Of a DNA stretch of 64,000 nt, positions 4,670 through 57,478 are shown piece after piece. Under the pieces are notes generated by a model. The model made no database searches. It had not been told where the DNA came from and saw nothing but the letters and a program-made list of their open reading frames with translations. Source of the stretch: an uncultured Bacteroidales bacterium. Lineage in GTDB: Bacteria > Bacteroidota > Bacteroidia > Bacteroidales > FEN-979. Location of the stretch: contig CAIQUS010000160.1 in assembly GCA_903875045.1 (NCBI GenBank), positions 17 through 64,016 of the forward strand, in the 5' to 3' direction. Position 1 is the stretch's first letter, and every line of letters begins with the position of its first letter. The translations under genes were made by a program, and so were the position numbers.

Positions 4670-5932
4670 TTACAGGTCGAGCAATAATTTGATAGGATCC
4701 AATCCTTCGGTAAGCATTTTAGCTGGATCCTCAACCAGTTCCTTTACTTTGACAAGGAAACTGACCGATTCGCGACCATCAATCACCCGGTGGTCATACG
4801 AAAGCGCTACGTACATCATGGGGGCAATGACTACCTGGCCATTAACCGCGATGGGCCGTTCCTGTATCTTGTGCATGCCAAGTATGGCGCTTTGCGGAGG
4901 ATTTAAAATAGGGGTCGACATCATGGAACCGAACACACCGCCGTTGGTGATGGTAAATGTGCCACCTTTCATATCGTCGATGGAAATTTTATTGTCGCGG
5001 GCTTTACCTGCAAGCTCTTTGATTTTCAACTCAATTTCAGCAATGCTCATCATCTCGGCATTGCGCAACACCGGTACAACAAGTCCCTTTGGAGCGCTTA
5101 CGGCAATGCCTATGTCAGCATACCTGGGGATAATCAAATCCTCTCCGTCGAGAAAAGAGTTGACTTGCGGAAATTCTTTAAGGGCAATGGTCACAGCCTT
5201 GGTGAAAAATGACATCAGTCCGACGCCAACGCCAAACCTTTCTTTGAAAGCAGTGCTGTATTTGTCCTTTATTTTCAGTGCAGACTGCATATTGATCTCA
5301 TTGAAAGTGGTCAGCATGGCAGTTTGGTTCTTCACCGAAACCAGTCGTTCTGCGAGTTTCAACCTCAAGGTGGTCATTTTTTTTCGGTCCACCTCCCTGG
5401 TTCCGGCAAATGAAACGGTTGTTGTTGCCTCCTTTTTCCGGTTGATAAAAGATTCAATGTCCTTTCGGGTTATTTTTTTCCCGGGAAATGCCAGGGTCAG
5501 ATCGCCCGGACTAACCTGTTTTTCTTCGGCAATTTTCCGTGCGAGGGGAGAGGCGTGGAGGCTGGCAGAAGAGTGGGCAAGTGGACTGGTGGGCAAGTGG
5601 GCAGGTGGGGGAGTGGCCGGATTTTGGAGGGAAGCATCCACTGGTTCCTGGGATTTGGGATTTGAGATTTGGGATTTGGGATTTGGGCCTTTCCCGGTTT
5701 GCGGGGTAATTACGGCTATAACCGCACCAACCGCCACGGTTTCACCCTCTGTTGCCATGATTTTGATTACACCGTCTTCGGGAGTGGTTACCGGGAAAGA
5801 GGCTTTGTCGGAATCGATTTCAACGATTTCCTGGTCTTTTTCAACAGTTTCACCATCAGCTACCAGCCATTTTGCCAGTTGCACCTGGGTAATGGATTCG
5901 CCTGGACTTGGAACTTTTATTTCAATTGCCAT
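4670..5932 (-). CDS. sucB: Dihydrolipoyllysine-residue succinyltransferase, E2 of 2-oxoglutarate dehydrogenase
   Basis: Lipoyl domain with the EIDSDKAS lipoyl-lysine motif, a Pro/Ala/Ser linker, the E3-binding segment [10 protein letters not shown], and a catalytic C-terminus with [10 protein letters not shown]. Lies directly downstream of sucA. Confidence 0.9.
5572..5619. repeat. Six tandem 8-nt units (RGTGGNNN) inside the sucB linker-coding region
   Basis: Plus-strand reading is agtgggca agtggact ggtgggca agtgggca ggtggggg agtggccg. It encodes part of [16 protein letters not shown] on the minus strand and belongs to the same word family as the intergenic array at 53010..53065. Confidence 0.85.
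5650..5687. repeat. Five tandem 7-nt units (GGGATTT) inside the sucB linker-coding region
   Basis: gggattt gggattt gagattt gggattt gggattt ggg. The minus strand AAATCCC units encode [13 protein letters not shown], the same word as in the intergenic array at 37068..37102. Confidence 0.9.
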
Positions 5933-18777: not shown

Positions 18778-18868
18778 GTCACGTGTCACGCCTCACATGC
18801 CACGCGTCACGCGTCACCCGTCACCCGTCACGCGTCACCCGTCACGCATCACCCGTCACTTGTCACGA
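18778..18868. repeat. Thirteen tandem heptamers (GTCACSC family)
   Basis: gtcacgt gtcacgc ctcacat gccacgc gtcacgc gtcaccc gtcaccc gtcacgc gtcaccc gtcacgc atcaccc gtcactt gtcacga. The array overlaps the last codons and stop (18849) of tilS. The inverted partner GTGACGCGTGACA at 18750..18762 can pair with 18777..18789. Confidence 0.9.
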
Positions 18869-20189
18869 CACATACTACCTCCCTCGTTGCCGACGTCACC
18901 CGATACCTGTGATCAATCCGATGACCAATAATCCACATAATATCGTTGCCGGAGCAGAGAAACCATGCTTGTTCTTTTTCTTTCAGTGAAAACTTCTGAT
19001 CGATAAAAAAATCACTCACTTTTTTCTTTTTCTTCATCCCGAACGGGAAAAAGGCATCGCCATGTTGCCATTTTCTTAATGTAAGTGGAAACTGAAGTTT
19101 ACCGGCGTCGAAACTGGCAATATTACTGCTTACCGGAATTTTATAATTTATAACATCGCTGATTCGTTCAAAATCAAGTCTGACAGGTTTGCTCATCCTC
19201 TTTTTTTTTGCAAACAACCCTATTTTAAATGACTTATCTTGCGTCTTTGGTTCAAGCAGGCTGAGGATCAGCCTCTGTCTGTCTTTCATCAAACGGTGGG
19301 TAGCAGAGAAGATTGTTTTACTGGTTTCTTTATCAAGGCAACCAAGGATGTTTGCCACCTGGGTTTCATTGAACCCATAAGGTGACAATAAAGCCCATGC
19401 ATACGGTTCAACAGGCTCTGATTTTAAAAGGTGCTGAATGTCAATAAACTGGTCTTTCCCATCAGTTGTTATTGCATCACGGCACCAGGTTTTCATGACC
19501 TGATTTCCAACCTGTTCAAATGCACTGATCCGGCTGATGCTGGCAGTTAATCCCCGGGTAAATTCAGGATTGATGTTGCAAAGGAGTGGAATTAATTCAT
19601 GCCTGATTTTATTTCTCAGGTACTTTGTTTCATTGTTCGTATGATCCGTACGATAATTTATTTGATGATGTGTGGCATATTCTTCAATATCTTTCCGGAA
19701 AGCGAACATCAAGGGTCTGATAACGGCGCCGTTTTTTACAGGAATCCCATGAAGCCCGGCAATGCCTGTTCCACGGATCAGGTTGATCAGAAATGTTTCT
19801 GCCTGGTCATCCTGGTGATGCGCAGTGGCCACATAAGCAAACCCATGGTCGCGCCTGATCTTTTCAAACCAGGAATACCGTAAATCCCTTGCGGCCATCT
19901 GGATTGAAGTGCCCTGCTGTGAAGCTATGGATGATGTGTCGAATTTTTCAGTAAAAAATGGTACCTTCAGTTGTTTTGCAAGTCGTTTAACAAAATCTTC
20001 ATCCTCATCACTCTCTTTGCCACGAAGACAAAAGTTGCAGTGTGCAATGGCAAACCGGTATTTCGCCTGGTTAAACAAATGTGCCATCACAGTGGAGTCA
20101 ATCCCTCCACTGACTGCCAGAAGGATATGATCTTCTCCCGAGAAAATGCCTTTTGATTGGATGAACTTTATTAAACTCCTGGGATTCAT
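18849..20189 (-). CDS. tilS: tRNA(Ile)-lysidine synthase
   Basis: 446 aa. PP-loop LLAVSGGIDSTVM followed by the TilS substrate-binding and C-terminal domains (ATAHHQDDQAETFLINLIRGTG). Confidence 0.9.
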   Translation of the reverse strand: MNPRSLIKFIQSKGIFSGEDHILLAVSGGIDSTVMAHLFNQAKYRFAIAHCNFCLRGKESDEDEDFVKRLAKQLKVPFFTEKFDTSSIASQQGTSIQMAARDLRYSWFEKIRRDHGFAYVATAHHQDDQAETFLINLIRGTGIAGLHGIPVKNGAVIRPLMFAFRKDIEEYATHHQINYRTDHTNNETKYLRNKIRHELIPLLCNINPEFTRGLTASISRISAFEQVGNQVMKTWCRDAITTDGKDQFIDIQHLLKSEPVEPYAWALLSPYGFNETQVANILGCLDKETSKTIFSATHRLMKDRQRLILSLLEPKTQDKSFKIGLFAKKKRMSKPVRLDFERISDVINYKIPVSSNIASFDAGKLQFPLTLRKWQHGDAFFPFGMKKKKKVSDFFIDQKFSLKEKEQAWFLCSGNDIMWIIGHRIDHRYRVTSATREVVCVVTSDG

Positions 20190-30803: not shown

Positions 30804-30867
30804 CTTTACCTGTTCACCAGTTTACTCGTTTACCCGTTTACCCGTTCACCCGTTCACCCGTTCACCA
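30804..30867. repeat. Eight tandem 8-nt units (GTTYACYN; GGTGAACG on the minus strand)
   Basis: ctttacct gttcacca gtttactc gtttaccc gtttaccc gttcaccc gttcaccc gttcacca. The array starts 2 nt from the start codon at 30802. Confidence 0.9.
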
Positions 30868-30876
30868 ACTTCCCCA

Positions 30877-30884
30877 CAAAATTA
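30877..30884 (-). promoter_or_regulatory. Candidate -7 box TAATTTTG upstream of the repeat array and the lipoprotein gene
   Basis: The plus-strand text is caaaatta. If used, almost the whole 5' leader of the 30802 gene would be the 8-mer array. Confidence 0.3.
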
Positions 30885-36992: not shown

Positions 36993-37040
36993 GGTGAACA
37001 GGTAAACAGGTGAACAGGTGAACAGGTAAACAGGTAAACG
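36993..37040. repeat. Six tandem 8-nt units (GGTRAACA)
   Basis: ggtgaaca ggtaaaca ggtgaaca ggtgaaca ggtaaaca ggtaaacg. This is the reverse complement of the word at 30804..30867. Confidence 0.9.
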
Positions 37041-37067
37041 GGTTTGGTTTTACATCAATTGTCATTC

Positions 37068-37102
37068 TAAATCGTAAATCCCAAATCCTAATTCGTAAAT
37101 CA
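37068..37102. repeat. Five tandem 7-nt units (TAAATCN family)
   Basis: taaatcg taaatcc caaatcc taattcg taaatca. The array abuts the rubrerythrin stop codon (37103) and uses the same AAATCCC word as the sucB linker repeat. Confidence 0.8.
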
Positions 37103-39238: not shown

Positions 39239-39688
39239 TCAGAAAATAAATTTTTTGTCTTTTTTCAGGTCGTTTTCTATCCCTTCAGGGGTTAACAAAT
39301 CTTTTTTCTCTTTAGGGTAAAATGAATCAGGCAGTAGTTGAATGTGCATGCTGAGCAGTAAATGGTCCATGATAATCAGCAGGAGGGTCCCGACAAATGG
39401 CAAAGGAATAAGCATTACCGGGACGATAACACCCGAACTCCTTAATATGTCAACTGTATGCTTTTTGAATTTCTTTTTCTCCTCCCGGGTAATATTTTCC
39501 TTTTTGATGAACTTCGTAAGAATGGTGAAGGTTTCTTTGGTTTCAAACGCTTCAGTTTTTATACCGGTTGAATACCTGTCGGCCTCACCCAGGAACATTC
39601 TTGCATAACCTGCAATCAGTTCCTTCACGCGTGGCAGCGTAAATAGTCTTAAAAAATAGCTAATGATCTTCTTACGCAGCGAATTCAT
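39239..39688 (-). CDS. Hypothetical membrane protein
   Basis: 149 aa with one clear hydrophobic segment (VIVPVMLIPLPFVGTLLLIIMDHLLL). No family recognised. Confidence 0.5.
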   Translation of the reverse strand: MNSLRKKIISYFLRLFTLPRVKELIAGYARMFLGEADRYSTGIKTEAFETKETFTILTKFIKKENITREEKKKFKKHTVDILRSSGVIVPVMLIPLPFVGTLLLIIMDHLLLSMHIQLLPDSFYPKEKKDLLTPEGIENDLKKDKKFIF

Positions 39689-39725
39689 AATTCGATATTC
39701 ATAATTCGGTATTCGATATTCATTC
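39684..39725. repeat. Six tandem 7-nt units (TTCRNTA)
   Basis: ttcataa ttcgata ttcataa ttcggta ttcgata ttcattc. The array spans the entire spacer from the stop of the Pmp3-like gene (39724) to the start codon of the 149-aa gene (39688). Confidence 0.85.
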
Positions 39726-42241: not shown

Positions 42242-42290
42242 AATTTGAATAACGAATATTGAAAAAGGAATTTTGAAGGTTGAAGGGATT
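42242..42290. repeat. Degenerate 7-nt periodic tract (ANNNNGA x7) in the beta-gamma intercistronic spacer
   Basis: aatttga ataacga atattga aaaagga attttga aggttga agggatt. This is weaker than the other arrays. Confidence 0.45.
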
Positions 42291-53009: not shown

Positions 53010-53065
53010 GTAAACTGGTAAACGAGTGGACGAGTGACCGAGTGGACAGGTGGACAGGTGGAAAG
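53010..53065. repeat. Seven tandem 8-nt units (RGTRNACN: GGTAAAC/AGTGGAC/GGTGGAC)
   Basis: ggtaaact ggtaaacg agtggacg agtgaccg agtggaca ggtggaca ggtggaaa. Confidence 0.9.
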
Positions 53066-55089: not shown

Positions 55090-56516
55090 ATCTGATTCGT
55101 GAACGGTTCACAAATAAATCGATTGTAATTCTCGGATTTGGAAGGGAAGGGCAATCGACCTATCTGCTTTTGCGAAAAATTTTCCCGGACAAACAACTTG
55201 CCATTGCCGATATGAGCGATGGTGTTCATGAAAACCCATTGATTCAGCACGATGATTGTTTGCACTTCATCACGGGAGCAGGGTATCTCAACCATCTGGT
55301 TAAGTATGACGTGATTTTTCGGTCCCCGGGAATTCCGATCTGGCAACTGATTGGTCCGGATGATGAATCAGCTTCTTCAGAAACCAAACAAGCTGCCGAT
55401 TTCCACATTCCCAGGAAAAAGATTACCTCGCAAACCGAAATTTTTCTGGAATGCTATTCAAAACAAGTGATTGGCGTCACCGGAACAAAAGGTAAAAGCA
55501 CCACCTCAAGTTTGATTCACCATATTTTTAAAACTGCCGGGAAAGATGTACTTCTGGCCGGAAACATCGGTAATCCTGTATTTCATTTCATTGACCTCAT
55601 TACCACGTCTACTTCGATTGTTTTTGAGCTTTCGTCACATCAGCTTGAATTACTGAAAATCGCTCCGCATATTTCTGTTCTGCTTAATCTTTACGAAGAA
55701 CATCTGGATGCCTACGAAAGTTATGATACCTATCAGCAGGCCAAAATAAATATCACAAAATATCAGCAACCTGGTGATTTCCTTGTTTTTAATTCTGATG
55801 ATCATCTGGTTGATAAGCTTGTGAAACCATTTTTGGGTCTTCGTAAACCCTTTCCATTTTCAGTCCAGGATCAGCCTCAACCTGGTGGATTTATAGATGA
55901 TGGGGCTATTTGTTTTGCAGATGAAAACCGGGTTGTTCCGGTATGGAAAATTCACCAGGACCGTTTCCTCCGCGGGGAGCATAACCTGAAAAATATTCTT
56001 GCCGCTGTGAATGTTTGCATGATTTGTGGCATTGAACCTGAAATGATCGAAGATGGTATCGCCACTTTTAAGGGGTTGGAACACAGGTTGGAGTATGTGG
56101 GCGAATTTGGCAATATTCACTTCTATAATGATTCGATTGCCACAATTCCCGAAGCCTGTATGGAGGCAATAAAGGCCATCCCTAACGTAGATACGCTTAT
56201 TGCCGGAGGCTTTGACCGTGGTATCAATTATGAAGGGTTGGCTGAATTTCTTTGCAGGTCGTCTGTAAGGAATTTCATTCTTCTGGGAGCCGCCGGGAAA
56301 AGGATCATGGAGCATCTGACTTTGATTAATCATGCGGAAAAAAAAATATTTCATATAAACCGTTTCGACGATTTTAAAACCATTGCGCTGCGGGAAACCC
56401 GTGCCGGTTATGCTTGTCTTCTATCACCTGCTGCAGCCAGCTATGATGAATTTAAAAATTTTGAAGAACGGGGAAAGAGGTTTAGGGAACTGGTAAAAAG
56501 CGAAAAAGCGAAATAG
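55083..56516 (+). CDS. murD: MurD-family UDP-N-acetylmuramoyl-L-alanine--glutamate ligase (possible L-Glu-specific MurD2)
   Basis: N-terminal Rossmann VILGFGREGQS, P-loop GVTGTKGKSTT, LNLYEEHLD and a C-terminal Mur ligase domain. It is not flanked by mraY/ftsW. Confidence 0.8.
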   Translation: MVNLIRERFTNKSIVILGFGREGQSTYLLLRKIFPDKQLAIADMSDGVHENPLIQHDDCLHFITGAGYLNHLVKYDVIFRSPGIPIWQLIGPDDESASSETKQAADFHIPRKKITSQTEIFLECYSKQVIGVTGTKGKSTTSSLIHHIFKTAGKDVLLAGNIGNPVFHFIDLITTSTSIVFELSSHQLELLKIAPHISVLLNLYEEHLDAYESYDTYQQAKINITKYQQPGDFLVFNSDDHLVDKLVKPFLGLRKPFPFSVQDQPQPGGFIDDGAICFADENRVVPVWKIHQDRFLRGEHNLKNILAAVNVCMICGIEPEMIEDGIATFKGLEHRLEYVGEFGNIHFYNDSIATIPEACMEAIKAIPNVDTLIAGGFDRGINYEGLAEFLCRSSVRNFILLGAAGKRIMEHLTLINHAEKKIFHINRFDDFKTIALRETRAGYACLLSPAAASYDEFKNFEERGKRFRELVKSEKAK

Positions 56517-56534
56517 CCAAAAAGCGAAAAATGA
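56495..56534. repeat. Five tandem 8-nt units (AAAAAGCG)
   Basis: aaaaagcg aaaaagcg aaatagcc aaaaagcg aaaaatga. The array contains the murD-like stop (TAG 56514-56516) and the next gene's ATG (56531). Confidence 0.85.
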
Positions 56535-57478
56535 AAAAAATATTAAACCTGCTGCTGGTTTTAGTGATGTTTGCGAACCATGTTTTTGCACAGCAGACTG
56601 ATTACAATACCATCGTGAACCGTTATATACTGAAATACAGGGATATTGCAGTCAAGGAAATGAAGGAGTACCGGATTCCGGCAAGCATCACCCTGGCACA
56701 GGGAATTTTGGAATCCAATGCGGGCCGTAGTCCGCTTGCTGTTGAGGCAAATAACCATTTTGGCATAAAATGTCATAAGGGATGGACAGGTAAAACATTT
56801 TACAAGGATGATGAAACAAAGAATGAATGTTTCAGAAAATATGGCAGTCCTGTTGAGTCATTCCGCGATCATTCATGGTTTCTGACCCAGCGCGACCGGT
56901 ATAAGGGTTTGTTCAGTTTGGAAATTACCGATTACAAAGGTTGGGCAAACGGCTTAAAATCGGCAGGTTATGCAACTAATCCTTCTTACGCACAATTGCT
57001 GATCAAGACAATTGAGACTTTCGATCTTTACCGTTTCGACCAGGCTGAATTTATTGTTGCATCGGGCGACAGTTCTGATGTTGCGACGCCGCCGGAAGAA
57101 AAGGCATGGTTAAACAGGTTTGTGGTGAAATCTACGGGACCAGCCAACCGCAATATTTACGAAAACAACAGGTTGCAAATGATTATTGCCAGACAGGACG
57201 ATAATCTGTATGTGATCGCACGTGATTTTAATTTATCCGTAAGTAAGCTGCTTAAATACAATGATTTACCAAAGCCGACTTCGTTGAATCCCGGCCAGAT
57301 TGTGTATCTTGAGGCAAAGAGACGAAAAGGGGCCATTGAAAGTCATAAGCTACAGGCAGGGGAGTCTTTATATGTCATTTCTCAACTTTATGGCATCAGG
57401 TTGAAATCTCTTCTTAAACGCAATGATCTGCACATAGGTAGTGAACCCAAAAAGGGAACTATTTTACGGCTTAGGTAG
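56531..57478 (+). CDS. Glucosaminidase-domain peptidoglycan hydrolase with two LysM domains
   Basis: Signal peptide. IPASITLAQGILESNAGRSPLA..NNHFGIK (mannosyl-glycoprotein endo-beta-N-acetylglucosaminidase domain). Two LysM repeats (YVIARDFNLSVSKLLKYNDL, YVISQLYGIRLKSLLKRNDL). Confidence 0.8.
   Translation: MKKILNLLLVLVMFANHVFAQQTDYNTIVNRYILKYRDIAVKEMKEYRIPASITLAQGILESNAGRSPLAVEANNHFGIKCHKGWTGKTFYKDDETKNECFRKYGSPVESFRDHSWFLTQRDRYKGLFSLEITDYKGWANGLKSAGYATNPSYAQLLIKTIETFDLYRFDQAEFIVASGDSSDVATPPEEKAWLNRFVVKSTGPANRNIYENNRLQMIIARQDDNLYVIARDFNLSVSKLLKYNDLPKPTSLNPGQIVYLEAKRRKGAIESHKLQAGESLYVISQLYGIRLKSLLKRNDLHIGSEPKKGTILRLR

Follow-up and report, generated by a model that had tools for sequence, protein, structure and literature searches.

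The 64,000-nucleotide stretch of DNA analysed here (the window) is part of contig C160 (CAIQUS010000160.1) in the genome assembly GCA_903875045.1 of an uncultured Bacteroidales bacterium (hereafter G000; 5.96 Mb, 253 contigs, 44% G+C). It carries a number of tandem arrays of 7- and 8-nt units in the spacers between genes, such as the octamer array at positions 30805-30867. These arrays are members of an already described class of repeats, in spite of the statement, made in a first-pass annotation of the window, that no known element class matches them: long simple sequence repeats (LSSRs), cyanobacterial short tandemly repeated repetitive sequences (STRRs) and the heptamer arrays of Xanthomonas and Nostoc all do, the last ones being the closest match. 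As that annotation had assumed, the arrays form one family-like population, strongly non-random relative to genes: throughout the genome they hug gene boundaries, mostly stop codons, and follow a strand polarity, which emerges only when arrays are considered relative to the boundary that they abut. The arrays are probably long simple sequence repeats generated by slippage and filtered by selection at gene boundaries.

The genome-wide population of arrays

Arrays were detected by Tandem Repeats Finder (TRF), run on the window and on the whole genome. Genome-wide, 1232 arrays were found; periods 7 and 8 account for 361 and 262 of them, far beyond chance, and periods from 3 to 6 for 17. Copy number among the 623 arrays of these two periods, 7 and 8, has a median of 5.3 and a maximum of 29.6. 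By rotation and complement, their units can be reduced to 116 distinct ones; 42% of the arrays are made of octamers, and a single heptamer, AAATCGT, accounts for 132 arrays. Features which define LSSRs and STRRs are thus all found: head-to-tail tandem repetition of 5-11-nt units, longer than expected by chance, at dispersed, non-coding loci, 489 of the 623 arrays being located in the spacers of a genome which is 88% coding.

Specific units are limited to narrow lineages. Three consecutive copies of AAATCGT occur 131 times in G000 and from 0 to 337 times in 25 genomes of the same genus, being present in 17 of them; this pattern is absent from 16 other families of the order, and a reversed control pattern gave a count of zero. 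Similarly, three copies of GGTRAACR are found 80 times in G000 and never in 300 other Bacteroidota genomes of 144 genera, a sample which includes no genome of the same genus. Unit vocabularies are therefore lineage-specific and fast-changing.

The recurrence of one heptamer in 132 arrays and such lineage-specific dialects, together with the strict polarity and the head-to-head pairing of arrays described below, might point to footprints of mobile elements, or to a dedicated repeat-writing activity, acting through MITE-like (miniature inverted-repeat transposable element) units or templated addition. We regard an origin of this kind as highly improbable. When the 120-nt flanks of arrays were compared all against all by BLAST, only 68 of about 570 tails matched another one, mostly via further arrays, and neither conserved ends nor target duplications were found. 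No identity gradient runs along the arrays, the period match being 0.846 in their first half and 0.849 in the last one, and at one well-defined site, the end of tilS, the unit corresponds to the gene's own terminal codons. An absence of association with mobile elements is also reported by Rehm et al. for the known class (PMC4692102).

Placement relative to genes

Genes were called by a custom procedure, based on open reading frames (ORFs) and a codon score, which resulted in 4089 genes and in the coding fraction of 88% given above. Arrays were found between co-directional genes in 339 cases, between convergent genes in 80 and between divergent genes in 70; 96 more lie within called genes or at their edges, and 38 at contig ends. 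Density per kb of spacer is 0.87 for co-directional, 1.30 for convergent and 0.48 for divergent spacers (chi-square p=3e-9). Within the range of 30-300 nt, chosen because hidden genes are unlikely there, an array is present in 228 of 1437 co-directional (15.9%), 51 of 242 convergent (21.1%) and 24 of 328 divergent spacers (7.3%). The actual trend among spacer classes is an under-representation in divergent ones.

The first-pass annotation had proposed that arrays be confined to spacers between co-directional genes, and had indicated a genome-wide survey of gene orientation as a check. Such a survey supports a non-random placement, yet not the confinement. All eight arrays originally listed in the window do lie between co-directional genes, once a small pmp3-like ORF is added, but the 80 convergent and 70 divergent cases show that this cannot be extended to the genome; arrays between long, clearly coding ORFs include C12:8457-8498 and C187:42005-42067 in convergent spacers, and C14:18032-18107 and C17:82663-82702 in divergent ones. 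The window has 32 spacers with a length of 30 nt or more, of which 23 are co-directional, 6 divergent and 3 convergent. The chance of finding all 9 non-co-directional spacers empty at genome rates is about 0.3, and the apparent confinement within the window is a sampling effect.

The association with gene boundaries is closer for ends than for beginnings of genes: the median distance from the upstream stop codon is 12 nt, with a lower quartile of 1 nt, versus 41 nt to the next start.

Polarity and base skew

Polarity was evaluated on arrays selected only by geometry, with one gene at a distance below 10 nt and the other 25 nt or more away, by considering the into-gene strand, i.e. the strand whose 3' end points into the abutted gene. 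At stops, this strand contains more C than G in 128 arrays and more G than C in 12, and is the richer of the two in YC dinucleotides (a pyrimidine followed by C) in 143 arrays, the poorer in 10. At starts, C exceeds G in 42 arrays and G exceeds C in 5, with more YC in 48 and fewer in 7. In terms of mRNA sense, units following a stop are G-rich and C-poor, those preceding a start C-rich and G-poor. In arrays with similar amounts of C and G, such as those of AAATCGT, orientation is still predicted by YC content, 40 to 3.

The rule is followed in all classes, by 82% of arrays at co-directional stops, 76% at co-directional starts, 73% at convergent stops and 80% at divergent starts, and is seen for both periods 7 and 8, as well as for periods 9-13 at stops. 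When two arrays lie less than 300 nt apart, the top strand shows a G-rich array followed by a C-rich one in 77 cases and the reverse order in 4; the two members share the same unit in 15 of the 77 head-to-head pairs. No bias is seen if, for co-directional spacers, orientation is simply compared with the direction in which the neighbouring genes run, whether arrays are pooled (155:167) or divided by unit family, nor is orientation associated with the replication strand, as judged by local GC skew or gene-strand bias. Arrays located within genes feature the C-rich strand in sense in 47 cases and the G-rich one in 19. Six of the eight window arrays obey the rule, the exceptions being the one at 30805, whose G-rich sense units abut the ATG of a lipoprotein gene, and the one at 53022.

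The asymmetry is not limited to the arrays themselves. A tail with more C than G (C 0.26-0.35, G 0.09-0.16) extends for 40-50 nt past the gene-proximal end of the array, whether the flank is coding or not, and is not seen beyond the distal end; in a paired test the difference is significant for both the 444 non-AAATCGT arrays (p=1e-30) and the 132 AAATCGT ones (p=1e-13).

A milder skew is also observed at boundaries of genes with no adjacent array. In their last 50 nt, the difference between G and C in the sense strand is at least 0.15 in 366 genes and -0.15 or lower in 124, the corresponding figures being 122 and 12 for genes with an array; in their first 50 nt, G prevails over C in 148 and C over G in 366. 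Gene bodies show no skew. This array-free signal may reflect either array remnants below the detection threshold or a general property of gene boundaries.

Two candidate causes of the polarity were tried and rejected. A supply of stop codons in all frames is provided by GTGACNN and GGTGAACG units, but the orientation most often found after stops, ACGATTT, lacks any stop triplet. A neutral explanation, transcription-coupled deamination, would predict sense strands poor in C in 5' leaders too, and the opposite is observed.

Translation in Bacteroidota is largely initiated without Shine-Dalgarno (SD) pairing, and arrays might accordingly be viewed as RNA boundary modules for SD-independent translation, G-poor pre-start arrays providing the ribosome with unstructured standby sites and C-poor post-stop arrays separating cistrons or protecting 3' ends. 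Pre-start arrays are indeed G-poor in sense (42:5) and run into natural leaders rich in A and C and poor in G, the bias around starts is genome-wide even without arrays (148:366), and array RNA is unstructured. A role of this kind would leave post-stop and convergent-spacer arrays unexplained, however; only about one fourth of boundary-abutting arrays face starts, the array at 30805 precedes its ATG in the G-rich orientation, and in one sister species, G002, a spacer which carries arrays in G000 works with 29 nt and no array at all. We consider this explanation quite unlikely.

RNA structure, terminators and Rho

Since each strand is almost devoid of one base, arrays form little secondary structure. 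Their minimum free energy (MFE) per nt is -0.059, versus -0.125 in length-matched segments of spacers without arrays (p=4e-42). Six window spacers were folded and compared with shuffled sequences: z values were -0.4, +2.1, 0.0, -1.2 and +0.6 for five of them and -2.9 for the tilS array, the only one to fold better than its shuffles, being made of the self-complementary unit GUGACGC. The spacer between the rubrerythrin gene (rbr) and the following E1 gene folds worse than 198 of 200 shuffles. Arrays thus lengthen spacers without adding hairpins. Pairing between neighbouring arrays is not the norm either, since an inverted two-unit partner within 250 nt is found for only 83 of the 623 arrays (13%).

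With such weak folding, arrays do not show the stable GC-rich hairpin followed by a T-run which defines intrinsic terminators. Arrays and terminator-like sites tend to be mutually exclusive. By a crude detector, looking for a hairpin and then a T-run, such sites were found in 31% of convergent spacers without arrays versus 11% of those with arrays (p=0.002), and in 11% versus 6% of co-directional ones (p=0.016).

Rho-dependent terminators are described by an excess of C over G, regularly spaced YC dimers and low structure (PMC6144790). These sequence features of Rho utilization (rut) sites are found together only on the into-gene strand, and a rho gene is present in G000 (C94:100836-101057, locus L107), within an open frame of 637 aa. 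This frame exceeds the length of E. coli Rho by about 200 aa, from which a large N-terminal insertion can be deduced, similar to that of other Bacteroidota.

Judging from base composition, arrays might therefore be direction-specific pads for Rho loading, each array with its 40-50-nt tail in the adjacent gene end forming a nearly ideal rut site, with a YC dimer every 7-8 nt, only for RNA entering the gene. Such RNA would be antisense where it enters a 3' end and untranslated read-through where it enters a 5' end, while the G-rich RNA leaving the gene would be ignored; genes would be insulated by arrays, which would partly replace intrinsic terminators. Several observations are in line with this possibility. 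The into-gene strand features an excess of C over G in 170 arrays against 17 and YC enrichment in 191 against 17 (40:3 in arrays with similar C and G), in addition to low structure, and the opposite strand bears G-rich features known to counteract Rho. YC dimers, if every second unit is used, are separated by linkers of 12-14 nt, versus the 9-13 nt of PMC6144790, and the C>G bubble runs for about 50 nt into the gene end. One rule applies at starts, stops and in all spacer classes; convergent spacers are the richest in arrays; and spacers with arrays hold fewer sites composed of a hairpin and a T-run.

Other observations are difficult to reconcile with it. C-rich arrays preceding starts within probable operons, as in the case of rbr-E1, would attenuate the downstream gene, and in sister species orthologous spacers without arrays show no visible compensation. 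The rut rules were derived for E. coli Rho and may not apply to a Bacteroidota Rho with a large insertion, a caveat raised in PMC6144790 as well. Finally, the exclusion of terminators would equally be expected if arrays were deleterious where a terminator must stay intact. On the whole, we consider a role in Rho loading unlikely. If true, it would imply a gene-boundary insulation system built from repeats, and could account for the polarity of heptamers in Xanthomonas, Nostoc and the G000 lineage.

Turnover in species of the same genus

Two sites were compared in detail in species of the same genus. The first is the tilS-dsbD spacer, which in the window contains a heptamer array on the minus strand (18778-18867; 7 nt x 12.9, in gene sense (GTGACGG/GTGACGC)x13, by TRF). 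In all species, the conserved codons GTG ACA (Val-Thr) at the end of tilS coincide with the first unit of the GTGACNN array (window 18849-18870, loci L094-L098): this first unit reads GTGACAN, so that the array starts within the last tilS codons and supplies the TGA stop. Copy number at this site changes by whole units between species, as expected for slippage: there are 13 GTGACNN units in G000, 10 in G005, about 4 in G002 and 3 in G016. The unit itself may change, as CTGACAC is repeated 5 times in G006 and ATGTGCTG/ATGTGATG 13 times in G012, while only degenerate remnants are left in G033.

A second, C-rich array follows tilS in G006 and G012. The spacers of these two species (L098, 2880-2960, and L096, 1340-1500, respectively) are long and composite, with G-rich octamers or heptamers immediately followed by C-rich arrays (TCCTTCG x8; CCCGTGTC x9), in the same order as in G000. 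The last 2-4 residues of TilS vary between species with the phase of the array. A true C-terminal extension of TilS by the array was considered and rejected, as homologues align up to residue 441-445 of 446 and only the last few codons derive from the array. When named records were scanned with tilS, only distant Bacteroidota were matched, uncultured Bacteroidales among them, with identities of 45% or less.

The second site is the rbr-E1 spacer, which in the window contains two arrays on the minus strand. A heptamer array, 3' of rubrerythrin (37067-37101; in gene sense (GATTTAC/GATTTAG)x5, by TRF), is G-rich and C-poor and begins 1 nt past the stop codon. It is followed by an octamer array (36993-37043; 8 nt x 6.4, in gene sense (TGTTTACC/TGTTCACC)x6, by TRF), C-rich and G-poor, ending 32 nt ahead of the ATG of a gene which codes for a fused E1 (2-oxoacid dehydrogenase). 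Five out of seven species carry arrays in this spacer. The order stop, G-rich array, C-rich octamers, ATG is found in G000, G035, G004 and G005, each having G-rich units of its own. The octamer family of 36993 occurs at the same place in G035 and G005, and is replaced by CCCTGTTA x14 in G004; no C-rich octamer array is found in G003, G002 and G013. The spacer contains only a G-rich array in G013 and none in G003, and is only 29 nt long in G002.

At orthologous sites arrays may be present, absent or replaced, and individual arrays are therefore dispensable. Some sites are nonetheless recurrent hot spots, where the order stop, G-rich, C-rich, start is kept while units change, and polarity is conserved in all cases.

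Differences in copy number at the same site between species could suggest phase-variation switches or promoter-spacing rheostats, in which the number of units toggles a neighbouring gene. Arrays at 18778, 39683 and 56495 overlap stop or start codons, where the gain or loss of a unit would alter the end of a protein, and the array at 30805 stands between a promoter-like box and an ATG. The population as a whole does not have the features of contingency loci, with units of 7-8 nt instead of 1-5, mostly located after stops, and not, as in those loci, between the -35 and -10 promoter elements or in the 5' coding regions of surface or virulence genes; following a stop, such units cannot shift any frame. 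The about 620 arrays flank housekeeping genes of all kinds, such as tilS, dsbD, rubrerythrin, E1 and the AlgH-like gene, and the left part of the 30805 array is identical in two lake samples. We find such switches very unlikely, and the same negative conclusion was reached for the known class by Rehm et al. (PMC4692102).

Relationship to known repeats

An over-representation of heptamer arrays in bacteria has been known since 1990, when STRRs were described, with a catalogue following in 2007. LSSRs are long simple sequence repeats with units of 5-11 nt, among which heptamers are the most abundant in most genomes, and a length of about 7 nt has been proposed to correspond to the DNA held by the polymerase, favouring slippage (Mrazek 2007, as summarized in PMC4679880 and PMC4692102). 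G000 arrays resemble the STRRs of heterocystous cyanobacteria and LSSRs, as these summaries present them, in being dispersed, mostly intergenic tandem arrays of a fixed, non-triplet unit, with a sporadic, lineage-specific spread, for which slippage has been proposed, but differ in that heptamers dominate there, while octamers are nearly as common in G000. Bacteroidota do not figure among the LSSR-rich genomes that PMC4679880 gives from the 2007 survey.

The closest match is with the GGGAATC arrays of Xanthomonas and the GGGGAYT arrays of Nostoc/Anabaena (Rehm 2015, PMC4692102). According to that paper, 89-93% of these arrays are intergenic, mostly flanked by ORFs of the same direction (16% convergent, 7-8% divergent), and close to one of the neighbouring ORFs (28 versus 160 nt); their G-rich strand is the non-coding one upstream of ORFs and the coding one downstream; they occupy the same spacers in sister species, varying in length and sequence; they show no link to mobile elements, phase variation or gene function classes, and their function is given as unknown. 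Each of these features is reproduced in G000, including the same-direction majority and the scarcity in divergent spacers (339/80/70 for co-directional, convergent and divergent ones) and the position of the G-rich strand, coding after stops (128:12) and non-coding before starts (42:5). Within ORFs, too, the G-rich orientation is similarly under-represented on the coding strand (19 vs 47 in G000).

What distinguishes the G000 arrays from these, besides the host, an uncultured freshwater Bacteroidales lineage, is the variety of units: 116 types, 42% of the arrays being octamers, instead of one G-quadruplex-forming unit. Tracts of three G are found only in some families (AAGTGGGC, ACCCGTC, AACGGGTG and the 30805 array), and are missing in the commonest unit, AAATCGT, and many others, so that G-quadruplexes cannot be the common denominator. 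As a predictor of polarity in G000, G-tracts are inferior to YC and C>G content.

G000 represents a very rich case, with about 620 arrays, 116 unit types, near-parity of octamers and many sister genomes. It makes clear that no G-quadruplex unit is required for the published polarity, which is best predicted by YC and C>G content. The extension of polarity into the end of the neighbouring gene, and its survival to unit turnover, narrow the possible explanations. The role of YC content, the skewed tail, the low structure and the exclusion of terminators were not found described in the related papers, within a literature covered in part; neither the G000 lineage nor its unit vocabulary was found in the searchable literature. 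YC polarity, tail and terminator exclusion are added details, which sharpen an old question without solving it.

Two other families of repeats show a partial resemblance. TAACTGA arrays have been described in marine Beggiatoaceae, cyanobacteria and five Bacteroidetes, along with other heptamer arrays in a few Bacteroidetes (MacGregor 2015, PMC4679880). They are also intergenic heptamers, abutting starts or stops with a preferred orientation, featuring insertions and deletions in steps of 7 nt between strains and occasional in-frame copies within variable protein loops (PMC4679880). They are composed, however, of a single stop-containing unit, mostly in 2-6 copies, placed in 'forward' orientation directly before starts (PMC4679880), while G000 arrays are made of many units, mostly follow stops, and have the C-rich strand in sense before starts. 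Enterobacterial repetitive extragenic palindromes (REPs) and the bacterial interspersed mosaic elements (BIMEs) that they form are, like G000 arrays, abundant short extragenic repeats, often located after stops and between convergent genes, but are imperfect palindromes of conserved sequence, mobilized by REP-associated tyrosine transposases (RAYTs). G000 arrays are direct repeats, poor in structure, without conserved ends; their unique flanks, and the low fraction having an inverted partner (13% within 250 nt), set them apart from both REPs and MITEs.

Origin of the arrays

From the period excess, the distribution and the turnover described above, we infer slippage as the generator of arrays and selection as the filter; any function that they may have would likewise be a matter of inference. 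Each array would be seeded by the tandem duplication of a short word at a gene edge, the terminal Val-Thr codons of tilS being an example of such a seed, and replication slippage would then expand it, contract it and change its unit. Selection would keep arrays only at sites and in orientations tolerated by transcription and translation. Such a filter would account for the scarcity of arrays in divergent, promoter-bearing spacers and in genes, except in linkers, and for the observed strand-asymmetric, structure-free units, poor in G before starts and in C after stops.

A number of points weigh against this explanation. Slippage alone accounts neither for the near-absence of periods 5 and 6, with a sharp onset at 7 nt, nor for the dominance of single units, such as the heptamer shared by 132 arrays with unrelated flanks. 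A filter based on tolerance does not obviously predict a single geometric rule, as strong at starts as it is at stops and valid for every spacer class, nor does it predict the C>G tail of 40-50 nt, which is seen even within coding sequences. Rho loading would fit the tail, the geometric rule, the 7-nt onset and the unit dominance which slippage and tolerance leave unexplained. Hot spots kept across species hint at some constraint, and, since arrays and terminator-like sites tend to avoid each other, the former could take over a function. Gene calls come, moreover, from a crude gene caller, with approximate starts, which misses ORFs below 60 aa. Taking these points into account, slippage followed by selection at gene boundaries is still, in our opinion, the probable origin.

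The 30805-30867 array and promoter-like boxes

The octamer array at 30805-30867 (minus strand; 8 nt x 7.8, in gene sense GGTGAACG/GGTAAACG) was defined by TRF and sequence inspection, its neighbours by Pfam. It lies 28 nt past the stop codon of a PolB-exo-like exonuclease gene and precedes a gene for a DUF4369 lipoprotein, with a lipobox-type signal peptide. The order in gene sense, on the minus strand, is exonuclease stop (30896), a box of the -7 type known in Bacteroidota, TAATTTTG (30884-30877, read directly from the sequence), the array, 2 nt, and the lipoprotein ATG. On the plus strand the array contains 24 C and 7 G, with 16 YC dimers versus 0 on the other strand. As initially noticed, the word GGTGAACR has one orientation at 30804 and the opposite one at 36993, which can be traced to the polarity of arrays at boundaries.

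The position of promoter-like boxes relative to arrays varies, in agreement with the first-pass annotation: TAATTTTG precedes the 30805 array, while TAAATTTG, upstream of dsbD, and TACTTTTG lie downstream of the 18778 and 53022 arrays, respectively. If the TAATTTTG box is used as a promoter, as its sequence suggests, the 30805 array would represent nearly the whole 5' leader of the lipoprotein mRNA. No array was found 3' of the orthologous exonuclease gene in six genomes of the same genus. A similar box (TAATTTTG, TAAATTTG or TATTTTTG) occupies the corresponding place in five of these six relatives, followed by a short leader, and none is found in the remaining one (L002); the gene following the exonuclease differs from the lipoprotein gene in five of the six.

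Read support and lake community

Sequences matching the G000 window are found in public lake-water metagenome runs, whereas no RNA run was found to contain this region. Logan contigs, obtained from such runs by an independent assembler, probably on the data of the source sample itself, offered a check for the possibility, raised in the first-pass annotation, that arrays are assembly artefacts. The check is favourable for the 30805-30867 array, which is covered: in run X1 contigs from both flanks overlap inside the array with 0 differences, while in run X2 a single contig enters from the left flank. It is not so for the tilS array, since in X1 the contig from the left flank reaches 18830, the one from the right flank begins at 18884, and 18831-18883 is without a unique contig.

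Summed k-mer depth in runs X1-X4, which is 5-9 on the flanks, amounts to about 570 on the TTCACCCG units (30812-30883) and to about 17,000 on the GTCACSC units (18794-18853). From dozens to more than 100 contigs with unrelated flanks match inside the two arrays. The same units must therefore be present at many other loci or organisms of the lake, being very abundant throughout its community and not in G000 alone, and contigs cannot provide copy number. A scan of Joint Genome Institute (JGI) metagenome contigs for exact 28-mers, looking for strain-level polymorphism, gave no match. Annotation should take into account that stop codons may be provided by arrays, that start-codon calls may be misled by them, and that contigs built from k-mers (de Bruijn) collapse there.

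Other arrays of the window

All eight arrays listed in the first-pass annotation were recovered by TRF, which also identified two further ones. Besides those already described, a weak array of period 7/14 (39683-39721, minus strand) fills the 35-nt spacer between the stop of the small pmp3-like ORF and the start of a 149-aa gene. Another weak array, of period 14 with 2.4 copies (42245-42277, minus strand), is C-rich in gene sense and stops 5 nt short of the next start codon. The octamer array at 53022-53062 (minus strand; in gene sense CCACCTGT/CCACTCGT, C-rich) begins 16 nt past the stop of the AlgH-like (DUF179) gene, upstream of the TACTTTTG box and the next gene. The only one on the plus strand, an octamer array at 56495-56539 ((AAAAAGCG)x4.6), covers the stop codon of a 477-aa gene, located upstream, and extends to the start of a glucosaminidase/LysM gene.

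The two additional arrays, an octamer and a heptamer one (5572-5609 and 5649-5687, minus strand; in sense (TGCCCACT)n and (AATCCCA)n), are located inside the gene of an E2 acyltransferase (4670-5932), whose domains span aa 4-75, 126-160 and 180-407. Translated in frame, they correspond to the flexible linker, rich in Pro, Ser and Ala, which leads from the lipoyl to the E3-binding domain. In this gene repeat DNA serves as protein linker sequence.

No Rfam family matches any of the window arrays. Elsewhere in the window, at 147-179 on the plus strand, the DUF805b RNA motif (RF02914) is recognized with 40.4 bits, above its gathering score, just upstream of a 746-aa ORF starting at 200.

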